A DNA stretch of 64,000 nucleotides, taken from positions 1,631 to 65,630 of the forward strand of contig JBDRTG010000034.1 in the NCBI GenBank assembly GCA_043824255.1. Direction: 5' to 3'. This DNA comes from a bacterium. GTDB lineage: Bacteria; JAHJDO01. Under the pieces are notes generated by a model. The model was not told the DNA's origin, did not search any database, and saw only the letters and a program-made list of their open reading frames with translations. Positions 1-34,189 of the stretch are shown in pieces. A program made the translations under genes and the position numbers. Position 1 is the stretch's first letter. Each line of letters begins with the position of its first letter.

Positions 1-1
1 T

Positions 2-1027
2 GATTCTCTTTCTAATGACCCTTACAACGAAGCTAAGATTACTAAAATTTACTGTAAGTCCGTTAACAAAGTCTCTGCCTTTTTTGCTGATCTTCCTCAT
101 CCATGTACAGTTGCTGTTGAGGCGGTTGGTTTCTACCACTGGTTTTGGGATCTGGTCAGCCCTCTTGCCTCTGATATCTATCTCTTGAATGCTGTTGAAG
201 TCAGACGTTATGCAGGCAGGGACCCTAAGACCGACTCCAGAGATGCCAGACTTATTGCAAGACTTCTTGCTTCCAATGAAATTACTCATAATAGTAAGCT
301 CTCTGTCTTTGTCCCTGATAACAACCTCAGACCTATCAGAGAACTTACTCGCCATCGTCATCAAACTGCCCGTTCTCTCGCTTGCTCTAAAAATAGATTC
401 AGGCGTATTACTCTCAAAGAGAACCTTCCTGGGCCAAGAACTCTTGACGCTCATCATGCTCTCCGCTGGATCAGAGGCTTTGAAAATAAAACTTCTGATA
501 TCCATAAATTTCAGCTTAGACAGCTTACTGATCAAATAATTTCTCTTGAAAGAGATGTATCTGATATTGAAAGACAAATTCTTGATCTTATTAATAAAGC
601 AGGTTATCAATCTCTTATGAAACTCCTTCAAACAATCCCAGGTATTGGTGATGTAGTTGCTTATACTATTATCGCAGAGATCGGCGATTTCTCCAGATTT
701 CAAACTGCTGGACAAATCGCCTCTTTTGCAGGTCTCACTCCCAGAGTCTTTCAAAGCGGTAATTCCTGCAGGCATGGCGGTATTAATAAACAAGGACCTT
801 CCAATCTTAGATGGGCTCTTCAGCAATCCGCTTGGGTTGCTATTAAACATAGCGAGTTTATTAGAAAAGTATTTAATAAAATTAGCAGGAAAGCCGGCAA
901 GAAAAAGGCTGCTTACGCTATTGCCAGAAAGCTTCTTGTCTGGAGCTGGGCTATGGCTAAAAACAATATCGCTTTTAATAAAGACTTTATTAATAAAGAT
1001 AAAGAAAAAACAGAAAGGGCGGCTTAA
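2..1027 (+). CDS. IS110 family transposase (DEDD/RuvC-like N-domain plus Transposase_20 HhH C-domain), N-terminus outside window
   Basis: Frame 2 is open from position 2 and about 95% identical in protein to the 362-aa ORF at 32363-33451. It contains the IS110 C-terminal motif [42 protein letters not shown]. Confidence 0.9.
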   Translation, partial: DSLSNDPYNEAKITKIYCKSVNKVSAFFADLPHPCTVAVEAVGFYHWFWDLVSPLASDIYLLNAVEVRRYAGRDPKTDSRDARLIARLLASNEITHNSKLSVFVPDNNLRPIRELTRHRHQTARSLACSKNRFRRITLKENLPGPRTLDAHHALRWIRGFENKTSDIHKFQLRQLTDQIISLERDVSDIERQILDLINKAGYQSLMKLLQTIPGIGDVVAYTIIAEIGDFSRFQTAGQIASFAGLTPRVFQSGNSCRHGGINKQGPSNLRWALQQSAWVAIKHSEFIRKVFNKISRKAGKKKAAYAIARKLLVWSWAMAKNNIAFNKDFINKDKEKTERAA

Positions 1028-1281
1028 TAATGAAAATATTTCATACTCTCTAGGATTACACCTGCAGCAGTGACCCTGAGACTCTTTTTGAGCATAAGGC
1101 TCAAGCCGTAAAGCTCGATAACGTGAATAAGGCCTGCTACAGGCGTATTTGTTCTCGTGCGGCTCTTGACCGCGAATAGTTGATTGCGACCCTCGAGGGT
1201 TTTTGAGAATATGAAATACTACATTAAAAAGCTGGGAAAGCATTATGTGAAGGTTTTTAAACACGCACAGAAAATCATAGT
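1028..1281 (+). other. Conserved 3' non-coding end of IS copy A (candidate guide/bridge-RNA region)
   Basis: About 254 nt lie between the transposase stop and the element end. They align with 32109-32362 of copy B as conserved blocks interrupted by short variable patches. Confidence 0.4.
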
Positions 1282-29154: not shown

Positions 29155-32037
29155 ATGTATTACAGAAAAAGATATATGGATTGGGTTGGTGCTCTGGTTT
29201 TTTGTTCTATCATATTGGGGACGGTATTTTGCAAAGCGGAGAATCAAAACTTAGTGAAAAATCCAAGTTTTGAGGATGGACTCTGGGGCTGGAAAATGAA
29301 GCTCAGTGGAGATATAGCAGGTCGTGAAGACGACTTTATTTTCGAGACAACAAAAGAGGAAACAATAGATGGTAAATACTGCGTAAGAATGGTGTGGCCA
29401 GAAAAAATCCCCTGTGAGAATAGTACATCGCATCTTATTCAGAGAATAGATAAAGAATTTAAAAAAGGAGAAAGATATCGATTCAGTTTCCATGCAAAGT
29501 ACACGCTTCCAAGATATCCGAAGACCAACTATAAGATTTGTCGTTTAAGTTTCAAGAAATTGCAGGGAGGATTCAAGAATATAGACTTCAGAGAGAATAT
29601 AGCGTCATCTGGCTGGAAGAAATATAGCCTTGATTTTACAATAGAAAATGATGCAGAATGTGTGTATGTATACTTTTTTTCTCGTGTTAATGGTGAGACT
29701 ATATTAATTGATGATGTAAAACTTACTAAGATCGAAGAAGTTGAAGTAAAAGAAAAGAAGAATCCTGTAAAGAGTAGCAGTTATGCCGATATGCAGTTTT
29801 TTAAGTCTAGCCACAGCTCTGTTTCCTTCAAGGAATTACCTGATAAGTTGTTGTTTGCAAATTCCCATATTGGTCTTGGTTTTTACAGCAAAAACTATGG
29901 TTTTGCCCAATCCAGCATGTATAGTGTTGATAAGGATACAGACTTTTTGTTTCAAGATTTTCCGAAAGACAGGGCTCTCTGGCAGATAGTCTTAAGACGC
30001 GATAAGGGGAAAGATTCCGGAGAAATAATTTTGGACAATTTCAATCCTTCAGTTACCTCCTATAAGAGGGAAATAAATAATGACTGTAGCATCTTACATC
30101 TTTATTGGAAAGATCTAGGTGTTGCGGGAAAAAATGGTGCTCTGGATGTTGAAGTTACAGTCACATTGCAAAAAGATAATCCGTTATCCTTTTGGCGTAT
30201 CAATATTCAAAACAGGAGTAAAGTATACGGTATATGGCAGGTATTTTTCCCTATTATAAAAGTGGCTTCGATAGATGAAACTCCTGAAGATGACTATTTT
30301 ATGTTCTGCAAGGACCGCGGCAGACTCATTAAGAATCCCTATAATGCCCCAAAGGGTTTCAGGCATGGTTTGCATGTCGATGGAAGTTTTCCAGGCACAC
30401 TGGATATGCAATTTCAGGCTCTGTATGATGAATCCGGTATAGGTTTATATTTAGCAGCTTATGATGACAAATATTATTTCAAACGTTTTAGAGCAATACA
30501 AGATTCTGAAAACAATACAATAGAATTTAAATTTGGACATAATCCACCCAATATGGGTTATCCAGATGAAAATTACAGTTTACAGTACGATATGGTAATA
30601 GGAGTATTCTCAGGTGACTGGTACGATGCATGCCAGATCTACCGCAAATGGGCGATAAAACAACCATGGTGCAAAAAAGGTCCCTTAATTACAAGAGAAG
30701 ACATTCCCACATGGTATAAAGAAGCACCTGTGATGCTTAAAAACAACTCACCTGGTGGAGAGCCAGCAATTGCTTTAAACAGGGATCATTTCTTAGAATT
30801 TTTAGAATTTACAGGTGTTTCATTACCATCCATATGGTATGAATGGCCTAAATGTATTCCAGCTATGACTGCTTTTCGTATTGTTGGAGGTGGGACTACT
30901 CATAACGGCAACTATCCTAAAATTTCTTCCATTCCAGGTTTTGCCGAAGCATGCAAGACTATATCTGAAGCAGGAGGTTATCCTTCAGCATATGTCTGTG
31001 CAAGCATCTATGACCAGGGTCGTAACAATAATGCGCCTTATGCTAAATGGGCAGAACCATATGTCTGTAGGGATGTTAATCTAAAATTGATGTATTATCC
31101 AAAATTGCCAGTATGGCTGATGTGTACATCCGCTGAAGAGTGGCAGAACAGGATAAAAGATATATGTGTTGCGTTGGTAAAAAATGAAAATGTCAAAGGA
31201 ATATATCTGGATACACTTGATGGTGGAGGACCGCACTGTTTTAATACAAGCCATGGGCACTCTCATGGCGGAGGAAACTATAGAGGTTTGGGGGAAAGGA
31301 AACTCGCCAAGAAGGTTCGAGATGCTATAAAATCAATAGATCCTAAAGTTTTCATTACAGGTGAAAATCCAGCTGATTTTATGATTGATGTAATAGACGG
31401 GATGTTATACTCATATACCTATTTTCCCGGATTTATTCCTGTCCCGATGTTCGCTACTGTGTATAATGATTATATCCCAAGATATGGTAGGACGGCGCAT
31501 TTTTTTAATAAGGATTCGTTTTATTGGGAAACTGGATCTCTTTTTGCCGAAGGAGCACAAATGGGAAGGATGCGTATTGACACAGATTCTATAACTGAAC
31601 CAAAATATAAAGAAGAAGCAACGTTTCTCAAAAGACTAATTAACTATTATAAAAAAGAAGTAGGGGGTAATTACCTTTGCTATGGGCAGTTACTTAGACC
31701 AATAAGATTTTCAAAGCCTGATACTTTGCCCGTAGCATCATTTAAATTTGAAAGAAAATTTGAAGAAGAAGTTAAATTAAAAGCACTTTTTGGTGGTGTG
31801 TTTAAAAGTGCTACTAATGAAGATATATGTATTTTTATTGTAAATGCTTCTAATAAAAAGGTGGAATTTAGTTTCAACTTGGATTGCAAGAAGTATAATG
31901 TTCCATCTAATAAAGAGGTAAAAGTATGTAAGGTATCCGAAACCGGGGATCGAAAATCTCTTAAAACCTGTGGGGAGATTTTTGAATATTCTGATACAAT
32001 AGGTGCTCGTGACATTATTATGTTAGAATTAAAATAA
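29155..32037 (+). CDS. Large secreted putative glycoside hydrolase (N-terminal CBM4/9/22-like beta-sandwich; C-terminal TIM-barrel-like domain of unknown family)
   Basis: 960 aa with SD GGGAGG and a signal peptide. The N-terminus (NLVKNPSFEDGLWGWK) is typical of CBM_4_9. The C-terminal region contains IYLDTLDGGGPHCFNTSHGHSHGGG. The family assignment is uncertain. Confidence 0.5.
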   Translation: MYYRKRYMDWVGALVFCSIILGTVFCKAENQNLVKNPSFEDGLWGWKMKLSGDIAGREDDFIFETTKEETIDGKYCVRMVWPEKIPCENSTSHLIQRIDKEFKKGERYRFSFHAKYTLPRYPKTNYKICRLSFKKLQGGFKNIDFRENIASSGWKKYSLDFTIENDAECVYVYFFSRVNGETILIDDVKLTKIEEVEVKEKKNPVKSSSYADMQFFKSSHSSVSFKELPDKLLFANSHIGLGFYSKNYGFAQSSMYSVDKDTDFLFQDFPKDRALWQIVLRRDKGKDSGEIILDNFNPSVTSYKREINNDCSILHLYWKDLGVAGKNGALDVEVTVTLQKDNPLSFWRINIQNRSKVYGIWQVFFPIIKVASIDETPEDDYFMFCKDRGRLIKNPYNAPKGFRHGLHVDGSFPGTLDMQFQALYDESGIGLYLAAYDDKYYFKRFRAIQDSENNTIEFKFGHNPPNMGYPDENYSLQYDMVIGVFSGDWYDACQIYRKWAIKQPWCKKGPLITREDIPTWYKEAPVMLKNNSPGGEPAIALNRDHFLEFLEFTGVSLPSIWYEWPKCIPAMTAFRIVGGGTTHNGNYPKISSIPGFAEACKTISEAGGYPSAYVCASIYDQGRNNNAPYAKWAEPYVCRDVNLKLMYYPKLPVWLMCTSAEEWQNRIKDICVALVKNENVKGIYLDTLDGGGPHCFNTSHGHSHGGGNYRGLGERKLAKKVRDAIKSIDPKVFITGENPADFMIDVIDGMLYSYTYFPGFIPVPMFATVYNDYIPRYGRTAHFFNKDSFYWETGSLFAEGAQMGRMRIDTDSITEPKYKEEATFLKRLINYYKKEVGGNYLCYGQLLRPIRFSKPDTLPVASFKFERKFEEEVKLKALFGGVFKSATNEDICIFIVNASNKKVEFSFNLDCKKYNVPSNKEVKVCKVSETGDRKSLKTCGEIFEYSDTIGARDIIMLELK

Positions 32038-32100
32038 CTGAGCAGTCTACTTATAAAACTTAAGAGGAGATAAACTCATGAGACGATTAAGGAACATGTT

Positions 32101-32108
32101 TGGTTTCA
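32101..32108. repeat. 8-bp direct repeat TGGTTTCA at the IS junction (left copy)
   Basis: Identical 8-mers at 32101-32108 and 33526-33533 bracket the insert. This is either a target duplication or a shared core sequence. Confidence 0.8.
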
Positions 32109-32362
32109 ACTATGATTTTCTGTGTGTACTAAAAAATCTTCACATAACAATTTCACAACTTTTTAATGTAGTATTTCATAATCTCAAAACCTCTCAATGG
32201 TCGCAATCAACTATCCGCGGTCAAGAGCCGCACGAGAACAAATACGCCTGCAGCAGGCCTTATTCACGCTATCGAGCTTTACGGCTTGGGCCTTATGCTC
32301 ATAAAAGCACTCAAGGTCACTGCTGCAGGTGTAATCCTAGAGAGTATGAAATATTTTCATTA
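32109..32362 (-). other. Conserved 3' non-coding end of IS copy B (candidate guide/bridge-RNA region)
   Basis: It lies downstream of the transposase stop. It aligns with 1028-1281 of copy A as conserved blocks, with variable patches at, for example, 32148-32159. Confidence 0.4.
32112..32124. repeat. Subterminal inverted repeat of IS copy B (3' end): ATGATTTTCTGTG
   Basis: Its reverse-complement partner is CACAGAAAATACAT at 33513-33526, matching 13 of 14 positions with one indel. Copy A has the same sequence at 1266-1278. Confidence 0.7.
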
Positions 32363-33451
32363 TTAAGCCGCCCTTTCCGTTTTTTCTTTATCTTTATTAA
32401 TAAAGTCTTTATTAAAGGCAATATTGTTTTTAGCCATAGCCCAGCTCCAGACAAGAAGCTTTCTGGCAATAGCGCAAGCAGCCTTTTTCTTACCGGCTTT
32501 CCTGCTAATTTTATTAAATATTTTTCTGATAAATTCGCTGTGTCTAATAGCAACCCAAGCAGATTGTTGAAGAGCCCATCTAAGATTTGGAGGACCTTGT
32601 TTATTAATTCTTCCGTGCCTGCAGGAATCACCGCTTTGAAAGACTCTGGGAGTAAGACCGGCAAAAGAGGCGATTTGTCCAGACGTTTGAAATCTGGAGA
32701 AATCGCCGATCTCTGCGATAATAGTATACGCAGCTACATCACCAATACCTTGAATTGTTTGAAGGAGTTTCATAAGAGGCTGATAACCCGCCTTATTAAT
32801 AAGGTCAAGAATTTGTCTTTCAATATCAGAGACATCTCTTTCAAAAGAAATAATCTGATCAGTAAGTTGTCTGAGCTGAAATTTATGGATATCAGAAGTT
32901 TTGTTTTCAAAGCCTCTGATCCAGCGAAGAGCATGATGAGCGTCAAGAGTTTTTGGCCCTGGAAGGTTTTCTTTAAGGGTAATACGCCTGAATCTATTTT
33001 TAGAGCAAGCGAGAGAACGGGCAGTTTGATGACGATGTCGAGTAAGTTCTCTGATAGGTCTGAGGTTATTGTCGGGGACAAAGACAGAGAGCTTACTATT
33101 ATGAGTAATTTCACTGGAAGCAAGAAGTCGCGCAATAAGTCTGGCATCTCTGGAGTCAGTCTTAGGGTCCCTGCCAGCATAACGCCTGACTTCAACAGCA
33201 TTCAAGAGATAGATATCAGAAGCAAGAGGGCTGACCAGATCCCAGAACCAGTGATAGAAGCCAACAGCCTCAACAGCAACTGTGCATGGATGAGGAAGGT
33301 CAGCAAAAAAGGCAGAGACTTTGTTAACGCATTTACAGTGAATTTTAGTAATCTTCGCTTCCCTATAAGGGTCATTAGAAAGAGAATCAGTTACAGCAAT
33401 AGTCATAGAATCCTTATGAAGATCCACACCAGCGTACGTAATTGTATCCAT
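32363..33451 (-). CDS. IS110 family transposase
   Basis: 362 aa. The N-terminal DEDD domain begins [15 protein letters not shown]. The C-terminal motif is [42 protein letters not shown]. An AGGAGG SD lies upstream. Confidence 0.95.
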
Positions 33452-33512
33452 TCTTTTGCCTCCTGTTTTAAGGTTAAATTACCTGTTTATCGTTTTCGCC
33501 ATTTTATCCTAG

Positions 33513-33526
33513 CACAGAAAATACAT
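33513..33526. repeat. Subterminal inverted repeat of IS copy B (5' end): CACAGAAAATACAT
   Basis: This is the inverted partner of 32112-32124. Confidence 0.7.
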
Positions 33527-33533
33527 GGTTTCA
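33526..33533. repeat. 8-bp direct repeat TGGTTTCA at the IS junction (right copy)
   Basis: Identical to 32101-32108. Confidence 0.8.
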
Positions 33534-34189
33534 CCTTGATAGAGCTTTTGGTTGTGATTGCAATAATCGCGCTTCTCGCGTCAATGCTTTTGCCTGCTTT
33601 GATGCAGGCAAGGGAGATGGGGAAAAGAACAAAATGCCTTAGTAACCTGAGACAATTAGGCATGGCTATCCAGATGTATGTCGATGACTATGATGGTTGG
33701 TTCCGTCCATATTATGTCAGTACATGGAGTGATTACAGGTGGAGATATTGGCCAAATTCTCTTGTTTGTCCGGGTTATATAAAAAATCCTGATGTATTTT
33801 ATTGTCCTTCTCTGGCGCCATTTAATGGTAGTAATGTGAATTCTAAATGGAATGGAGCTTATTTCGACGCTGTTCCCCTAACTTATGGATTGAGGAGATG
33901 GGGTATAGGTGATGAGCCTATTTTCAAGATAGAGAATCCGTCAGCTTATTTCATTCTGGTAGATAGTGTATTAGATATTCCAGGAAATGCAGAGCATATG
34001 CTACAGGTCTACAATGTTGATGACGCTGGTCAAGCTGTTCATGTTCGGCATAATGAGAGGGCAAATACTTTATTTGCTGACTGGCATGTAGAGGCGAAAG
34101 AAGAAAGCTATTTTACTGATTTGGGTTATGATGTGTATCCATGACTCATTTAACCTTCAAAGAAATTTAACTAAAATATGAGGCTGAAA

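Follow-up and report, generated by a model that had tools for sequence, protein, structure and literature searches.

The element and the interrupted gene

We describe here an insertion sequence (IS) of the IS110 family that interrupts a pilin-like gene in a 64,000-nucleotide stretch of bacterial DNA, called the window in the following. The transposase gene of this IS is antisense to the pilin gene, and the strand opposite to it is free of stop codons in the pilin frame, such that a composite open reading frame (ORF) of 688 codons runs from the prepilin start across the insert and into the pilin body. An earlier note on this DNA, made from the sequence alone, had pointed out the open frame and remarked that it looks selected. 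We will show that selection against antisense stops in the host frame is common to a large family of relatives.

The positions of all features are given in Table 1. The insert is bounded by the 7-bp direct repeat GGTTTCA (right-hand copy at 33527-33533), and its borders can therefore slide by 7 bp. It is in frame in every respect: the length of 1425 bp is 3 x 475, the host frame contains no stop, and the host ORF continues downstream, running through 205 pilin codons after the right junction. In-silico removal of the insert gives MRRLRNMFG·FTLIELLVV back. The open frame lies on the + strand and is codon-aligned with the transposase (33451 to 32363, - strand), while the remaining five frames have 10-57 stops inside the IS.

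The transposase has the two domains of the family, the DEDD (RuvC-like) N-terminal domain (PF01548, E = 2.8e-14) and the IS116/IS110/IS902 C-terminal domain (PF02371, E = 4.2e-28), both of which exceed the gathering scores, and its relatives carry the annotation "IS110 family transposase". The element has only sub-terminal inverted repeats of ca 10 bp and lacks classical long terminal ones. Its layout is that of the IS1111 type, with 254 nt on the 3' side of the coding sequence and ca 75 nt on the 5' side; IS1111-type elements are known to have their non-coding region downstream of the transposase gene (PMC13604230). In the 688-aa ORF, Pfam recognizes N_methyl at residues 481-505 and DUF1559 at residues 510-539 but no family within the 475 inserted residues, and the pilin helix is the only part of the fusion that is hydrophobic. 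The interrupted gene is part of a same-strand cluster of carbohydrate-related genes, and an oxidoreductase gene starts 34 nt after it.

Table 1. Features of the two IS copies and of the genes that they interrupt (window positions; SD, Shine-Dalgarno sequence).
Feature	Position	Strand	Remarks
Composite 688-aa ORF	32078..34144	+	Host prepilin leader, then 475 IS-added codons, then pilin body
Host SD AAGAGGAG, ATG and prepilin leader	32062..32107	+	ATG at 32078; opens the pass-through frame
Left copy of 7-bp repeat GGTTTCA	32102..32108		Gly-Phe codons; recombination core or target duplication
IS110-family (IS1111-type) insertion sequence	32109..33533	-	1425 bp; transposase antisense to the pilin gene
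3' non-coding end	32109..32362	-	Holds candidate guide (seek/bridge) RNA; stop-free in the host frame
Sub-terminal inverted repeats of this IS	32115-32124; 33513-33522		ATTTTCTGTG; CACAGAAAAT
Promoter-like site TTGAGA-16-AATACT	32170..32197	-	Outward, at the transposase-distal end; consensus match only
Conserved blocks in the 3' end	32258-32277; 32202-32219	-	GCTCGATAGCGTGAATAAGG; CGCGGATAGTTGATTGCG
Transposase coding sequence	32363..33451	-	362 aa; PF01548, PF02371
Transposase 5' leader with its SD	33452..33526	-	+ strand codes up to just before the regenerated Gly-Phe
Pilin-like body, DUF1559 type	33527..34144	+	In frame with the IS antisense frame
Second IS copy	1..1281	+	Transposase on +; cut by the window start
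Host prepilin start of the second copy, MLSRTRRTWRRMCAF	1327-1282	-	ATG at 1327

Absence of antisense stops in the window element

An antisense frame that is codon-aligned with the transposase is closed by the codons TTA, CTA and TCA, and all three are absent from the 30 leucine codons (CTT 22, CTC 6, CTG 1, TTG 1) and 25 serine codons (TCT 14, TCC 4, AGC 5, AGT 2) of the transposase. In the host genes of the window, on the other hand, TTA and CTA make up 24% and 12% of the leucine codons (together ca 35%), and TCA 24% of the serine codons. With host codon usage as the null, 16.7 antisense stops are expected for the transposase and none is observed (P(0) = 2e-9). The 27 host ORFs of the window have 8.4-28.5 antisense stops per 362 codons, with a longest open antisense run of 135 codons.

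A second null, calculated from the element's own third-position (A3) frequencies, was added because the element shuns A-ending codons generally: these make up 12% of its four-fold families, compared to 29-47% in the host. This null predicts 6.6 stops (P = 5e-4). Synonymous shuffling within the transposase is uninformative since there are no TTA, CTA or TCA codons to shuffle. With A-ending codons rare in all its four-fold families, the objection that the open frame follows from a bias toward pyrimidine-ending (NNY) codons has some force for the window element alone. As described below, it does not hold for the relatives or the non-coding ends.

The statements of the earlier note on the window element were thus confirmed almost throughout. 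The whole IS is stop-free in the host frame over 475 codons, the 3' end and the 5' leader included, the transposase lacks the three codons, and the host uses TTA freely. The remark that A-ending codons are still used needs to be modified, as they do occur but are rare.

It can also be observed that A-ending codons are scarce in every four-fold and three-fold family of the transposase (GCA 1/36, ATA 1/30, GTA 2/17), where the host prefers them, while the two-fold purine-ending codons still favour A. This depletion exceeds what stop avoidance needs.

In dinucleotide shuffles, 0.8% of the sequences are stop-free for the 254-nt 3' end and 23% for the 82-nt 5' end.

The second copy in the window is 92.6% identical to the first at the DNA level and differs by 4.7% at the protein level, in line with the ca 5% given in the earlier note, which had described both copies as open. 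The frame of the second copy is open over 442/442 visible codons from its own host ATG, while the other two frames contain 25 and 51 stops.

Stop depletion across relatives

We now consider the relatives, which were collected by a protein search, exact-protein look-ups, one genome scan and one metagenome scan. Together, these yielded ca 100 loci; the scan of genome contigs gave only 6 of them, the metagenome scan being the productive source, and a DNA search of the IS against plasmids gave no match. The loci form 72 clusters at 90% identity, with GC contents at the third codon position (GC3) of 0.22-0.90.

In 52 of the 72 clusters there are no antisense stops at all, compared to 391 expected in sum. 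The relatives at 97% and 81% identity, and most of those at 36-54%, belong to this group, and open frames were seen over the identity range of 26-54%. For the GC-rich relatives only 1-9 antisense stops are expected. Among the clusters with GC3 below 0.55, 10/14 have zero antisense stops, and the own-A3 null gives probabilities of 1e-8 to 1e-15 for very AT-rich lineages. Three of these (L056, L058 and L020, with GC3 of 0.22, 0.36 and 0.41) have no antisense stops where 13.4, 18.4 and 19.0, respectively, are expected (P0 of 1e-10 to 1e-15). Their TTR codons are all TTG, yet 81-88% of their other two-fold purine-ending codons end in A.

The null itself was found to perform well where the frame is closed. 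For three closed lineages it predicts 11, 11 and 15 antisense stops, and 16, 10 and 21 are observed (L012, L014 and L015, respectively). Six outgroup IS110 elements from plasmids have 6-24 antisense stops where 10-23 are expected, which is the right range for a neutral null.

The non-coding 3' ends were examined for 54 distinct elements. The frame that is contiguous with the antisense ORF is stop-free in 45/54 of them, as compared to 4/54 and 2/54 for the other frames. Codon bias does not explain this frame-specific openness.

The suggestion that the pattern is selected is thus strongly supported, both by the nulls and by the conservation across a large clade. It should be added that the synonymous-site divergence is 0.34-0.49 for open pairs and 0.44-0.65 for closed pairs at similar protein identity; this comparison is confounded by composition, and we claim no extra constraint from it.

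Target site and two architectures

At all loci with a readable junction, the IS is inserted antisense at the Gly-Phe codons of a prepilin-type N-terminal motif. The target is G·FTLIELL, a few sublineages using the related motif SFSLRTLL, and the insertion is specific for site and orientation around a short core, as is typical of the IS110 family. The Gly-Phe codons are those of the prepilin cleavage site; neither this target nor the rebuilding of the junction by the IS, or its supply of a substitute leader, had been pointed out in the earlier note. The core is GGTTTCA or GGCTTCA, and the IS terminus is CATAGNT. On one side of the junction, the IS terminus (...F·NYDFL, ...F·NYVVL, ...F·IYVARQ) comes after the host start and a leader ending in (G/A)F, and on the other side the end of the IS directly precedes G·FTLIELL. 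In most relatives the host leader is in frame with the antisense ORF, so that the open frame begins at the host ATG, with the insertion located 8-25 or more codons inside the coding region.

The frame is continuous with the target gene, and this continuity takes two forms. In the first (architecture A, fusion), the antisense frame enters the pilin body without a stop, as in ...KIHG·FTLIELL in the window and ...KSNIG·F or ...PLHG·F in GC-rich clades. The full in-frame route from the host ATG through the IS to the pilin body is seen in 21 clusters.

In the second form (architecture B, stop-restart), an ORF of ca 460-510 codons runs from the host ATG and ends on an IS-borne GGAGG-ATG, the ATG of which opens a typical prepilin leader such as MKKKFSKSIFSKPHG·F. 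The overlap of stop and start reads ATGA (L052, L053, L056, L058), ATGTTAA (L050) or ATGTTTAA (L020, L028), and in all these lineages a GGAGG SD is found 6-9 nt upstream. This is the arrangement of a translationally coupled gene pair; the window element, with its direct fusion, does not have it. Gene callers report intact N_methyl prepilin ORFs from the IS-borne ATGs. The substitute leader belongs to the element, because its conservation follows that of the IS, whereas the leader on the other side changes from site to site.

An operon context was found for a 97% relative (L007/L008; GCA_030652805.1 and SRR13727525), which interrupts a gspG-like pseudopilin gene located midway in a type II secretion operon. 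The gene order is gspE, gspF, IS/gspG and then gspJ, gspK and pilM/N, and the same insertion is present in the two independent data sets.

Some further details of the junctions were noted. In L020, L021, L023, L026 and L028, the frame of the host leader stops after ca 27 codons at ATGGTAA, which overlaps the ATG of the long antisense ORF; these loci thus carry a chain of three coupled reading frames. The metagenome contigs L009, L010 and L011 share the right-hand flank but have different pilin-like genes on the left, a pattern that suggests either recombination between copies of the IS or a chimeric assembly, and L010 and L011 have a 42-nt insertion in the 5' leader. A GC-rich subclade (L060, L066, L068, L069, L072, L091) has moved to the motif ...H·SFSLRTL(L/F)VVV, with the 5' junction catAGTTTCAG, and L080 lies within the hybrid motif GFTLRTLLV. 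These elements have 1-5 antisense stops.

Loss of the open frame in one subclade

The open frame is lost where the IS has an outward promoter-like block. The closed subclade consists of L012, L014, L015, L099, L100 and L105, with 10-21 antisense stops, i.e. the neutral number. In 6/6 of these elements, the antisense strand carries a conserved TTGACA-N16/17 (G-run)-TAAACT block, located immediately before the IS-borne SD-ATG-leader. The block of L099 has a weaker -10 element and was not called by the scan. No such block was found in the open sister lineages or in any of the other open lineages examined. As the element may in this case drive the pilin body itself, the open frame would be dispensable and would decay.

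In three open sisters of this subclade (L013, L101 and L103), an inverted repeat, CTCCTCC...GGAGGAG, is located just upstream of the IS-borne SD GAGGAGG, on the antisense strand of the 5' leader. The hairpin that it suggests could mask or mimic the SD.

Translatability rather than an encoded protein

We turn next to the question of whether the sequence of the antisense product is conserved. Between the two copies in the window, 67 codons differ, with the changes distributed over the transposase codon positions 1, 2 and 3 as 9, 8 and 53. In the transposase, 16 of these codon differences are non-synonymous and 51 synonymous, whereas in the antisense frame 57 are non-synonymous and only 10 synonymous. 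This comparison, which the earlier note had proposed as a check, thus reveals no constraint on the antisense residues. The same is seen between relatives, where the antisense identity is far lower than that of the transposase in all pairs compared (e.g. 85% vs 97%, 57% vs 81% and 26% vs 54%). No sign of purifying selection on the antisense amino-acid sequence was thus found.

With the antisense residues unconserved, no Pfam domain in the insert, and an ORF much of which is the reverse of a conserved RNA-like region, selection is seen to act against stops and not on a particular sequence. We conclude that only translatability is selected, not the encoded sequence. In a check of the giant-leader idea considered below, a segment resembling a transmembrane helix was found in the antisense peptide of 0/38 fusion-type elements vs 7/30 others, but this difference is confounded by GC content and phylogeny and is given little weight. 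The net charge of the antisense peptide is positive only in AT-rich lineages.

Proposed mechanism

The best reading of these results, and one that we consider reasonably probable, is a translational pass-through that would prevent polarity and rescue the target gene. The translation of the frame, its role in polarity and the function of the pilin are what we infer from the sequence.

In the proposed mechanism, a guide RNA would direct insertion into DNA coding for the prepilin N-terminus G·FTLIELL, with the transposase antisense to the target. The strand opposite to the transposase is held stop-free in the frame of the interrupted gene, throughout the guide-RNA region, the transposase gene and the 5' leader. 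Because this strand is stop-free in the host frame, ribosomes starting at the host SD and ATG would be able to translate through the 1.4-kb insert. Coupled translation averts Rho-type polarity. Translation would in this way stay coupled to host transcription, and polarity on the pilin body and the downstream operon genes would be prevented.

The pass-through would also bring ribosomes to the pilin body. In the window lineage, with its length of 3n, the result would be a single fusion protein in which the Gly-Phe site of the prepilin peptidase is regenerated. In the other lineages, the pass-through ORF would end on or beside the IS-borne SD-ATG-leader, and normal prepilin would be made by termination and reinitiation. 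Operon contexts in which polarity would matter are present in the same-strand cluster of the window and in the mid-operon gspG insertion.

The earlier note had offered three explanations, namely a real antisense product, the avoidance of polarity or premature termination, and a translation-coupled control of transposase expression. The second of these fits best, because the frame starts at the host ATG and ends in the pilin body or in a coupled restart, and because the only elements to have lost it are those with an outward promoter-like block of their own.

A number of points weigh against the pass-through. Many of the targets belong to large families of DUF1559 paralogues, and the loss of one copy may cost little. 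The removal of a ca 485-residue extension by the prepilin peptidase at the regenerated Gly-Phe is speculation, and it is a weak point of the fusion architecture. The contrast between promoter and open frame represents one evolutionary event, with the promoter assigned by consensus match only. At the only right-hand junction available for the 81% relative (L009-L011), the open ORF is not in the frame of the host leader, and a GC-rich subclade with the junction "...ATAGCATTCAC" is likewise out of frame, with 1-2 stops. The L020 lineage requires two coupling steps, and in L013 and L016 the long ORF ends ca 45 nt before the SD-ATG, with no overlap.

A bolder version of the same idea, which we consider rather unlikely, is that these elements form an IS110 clade with "translational transparency", acting as an intron at the protein level that is placed exactly at the codons of the prepilin-peptidase cleavage site. 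The giant cytoplasmic leader of ca 485 residues would then be cut at Gly-Phe to leave the mature pilin unchanged and the insertion phenotypically silent, and the sister lineages would reach the same end by stop-restart with the IS-borne leader.

Alternative explanations

Another option considered was that the antisense ORF codes for a functional protein of the "hed" type (host-expression-dependent), e.g. a regulator of transposition, that is made only behind an active host start. IS900, also of the IS110 family, has such a complementary-strand ORF across the whole element, hed (PMC8141618). The present ORF is moreover kept as an ORF across very divergent relatives, and several lineages have it as a separate frame of 462-510 aa that ends in a stop of its own. 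However, amino-acid conservation does not go beyond what the transposase imposes, most of the codon changes between the copies alter the antisense residue, and the insert has no Pfam domain. Much of the ORF is also the reverse of a putative structured-RNA region, and it has fully decayed in a subclade that is still present at several different sites. That the real antisense product of the earlier note exists as a functional protein is thus improbable.

We give about as little credence to the possibility that the open frame serves to regulate the element, with host read-through controlling the transposase or the guide RNA by transcriptional interference or antisense pairing, and transposition in this way tied to the activity of the target gene. 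The fixed orientation, by which host transcription always runs against the transposase gene, would agree with this, and the outward promoter-like site at the transposase-distal end fits expression mainly from the circular form (PMC13604230). Interference, on the other hand, requires transcription and not an in-frame continuation. The lock to the host ATG, the re-entry into the pilin frame and the ending on a prepilin-rebuilding SD-ATG-leader are left without an explanation, and so is the coincidence of frame loss with an outward promoter-like block for the pilin body.

Finally, that the open frame is an unselected by-product of codon bias (NNY or T-ending codons, GC-rich origin) or of chance is very improbable indeed: the rarity of A-ending codons in the window element and the low expectations for GC-rich relatives would agree with it, but not the own-A3 nulls for the window element and the AT-rich lineages, the exclusive use of TTG in lineages that otherwise prefer A, the frame-specific depletion in non-coding ends, or the neutral counts in sister lineages and outgroups of similar composition.

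Relation to known systems

Of the known systems, hed of IS900 (Mycobacterium avium subsp. paratuberculosis; Doran et al. 1997) comes closest; it is a complementary-strand ORF that spans the element and, according to PMC8141618, has no ribosome binding site (RBS) or start codon. The two systems agree in the family, in the antisense ORF across the whole element, and in expression via host signals at an orientation-specific site (PMC8141618). In the window element, likewise, there are 0 stops across 1425 bp and the start is provided by the ATG and SD of the host, and the same applies to the second copy and the relatives. The two differ in that IS900, compared here by its description, belongs to a GC-rich genome, in which long antisense ORFs come about readily, whereas the present trait is selected in AT-rich hosts. 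Unlike hed, the open frame is a continuation of the host ORF that leads back into the target gene or to a restart of it, and the element is of the IS1111 type with a non-coding region downstream of the transposase gene. Doran et al. are said to have found IS900 at translation-initiation signals, between RBS and start codon, and not inside a coding region. What is added over the hed precedent is strong evidence of selection and a proposed function that is amenable to testing.

The elements share with the RNA-guided IS1111/IS110 elements (Siddiquee et al. 2024, Durrant et al. 2024) the DEDD transposase with PF01548 and PF02371, the downstream non-coding region, the site- and orientation-specific insertion at a short core, and a guide-like segment that covaries with the terminus. 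They differ in that the target is a protein-coding motif in many paralogous genes and that the candidate guide RNA is unmatched in Rfam. Term searches of these two papers found no antisense reading frames and no prepilin targets. In the literature collection searched, which is incomplete, nothing relevant beyond hed was found on IS110 with prepilin, IS110 with DUF1559, or antisense ORFs of IS110.

Frame-keeping inserts that are translated within the host protein are also known, namely the Rickettsia palindromic elements and other intragenic miniature inverted-repeat transposable elements (PMC10969869). The Rickettsia palindromic elements, however, are of ca 150 bp, non-autonomous, and add a small peptide, whereas the present 1.4-kb element is autonomous, its transposase gene and guide-RNA region must be stop-free on the other strand, and some of its lineages use stop-restart instead of fusion.

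Other selfish elements inside genes, i.e. IStrons, group I/II introns and inteins, offset the insertional damage by RNA or protein splicing. No splicing is involved in the mechanism proposed here, in which the insert would be translated through or followed by re-initiation. The coupling of operon genes by ATGA stop/start overlaps is well known, and so are outward-facing promoters of insertion sequences. In the stop-restart lineages, the ATGA, ATGTTAA and ATGTTTAA overlaps and the GGAGG that precedes them resemble the former, and the TTGACA-N16/17-TAAACT block of the closed lineages the latter. In contrast to operon coupling, the upstream "gene" is a spacer of ca 460 codons with no conserved protein sequence, and the downstream one is a host gene rebuilt by the IS.

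We thus have an autonomous transposon under strong long-term selection for the translatability of its non-coding strand in the frame of the target gene, which constrains the codon usage of the transposase and even the guide-RNA region. Codon-level stop avoidance can in this way mimic dual coding with no second protein. The pass-through would be a form of damage limitation distinct both from splicing, as in introns, inteins and IStrons, and from safe-site targeting, and it would give a role to the antisense ORFs of the hed type in the IS110 family, which have lacked an explanation since 1997. If the bolder reading were true, a relay of host translation in the antisense frame to the displaced host gene would account for hed of IS900, and the principle may apply generally to IS110-family elements that insert within or beside the 5' ends of genes. 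The lineages that have lost the open frame and have an outward promoter-like block constitute a natural experiment.

There are also practical aspects. Gene callers are confused at such loci, with the 688-aa fusion ORF competing with the transposase. For the design of cargo for bridge- or seek-RNA recombinases, natural elements that can be inserted in coding regions with no truncation may be of interest.

Non-coding 3' end and candidate guide RNA

The blocks of the 3' end are conserved across clades with GC contents from 0.31 to 0.69. One of the conserved motifs, ATAG[N]TGA, covaries with the IS terminus CATAG[N]T in 53/53 cases (A-A 21, C-C 19, T-T 13), including independent switches such as that of L088 inside the "C" clade. 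Such covariation is expected of the seek/bridge RNA of IS1111-type elements, and ATAG[N]TGA is therefore probably a guide segment. In addition, a GTGAA block in the 3' end matches the target. An Rfam scan of positions 31900-33700 (E-value mode) matched no family, and RNAalifold gave only one 4-bp hairpin on the 3' core; a full guide-RNA structure is not claimed.

The outward promoter-like site listed in Table 1, which is of the sigma-70 kind, has a counterpart in L056, with a perfect TTGACA-17-TATAAT at the same place, ca 60 nt from the 3' end of the IS. The site of the window element is probably the promoter that is used after circularization has joined the two ends, and it would drive the transposase only then.

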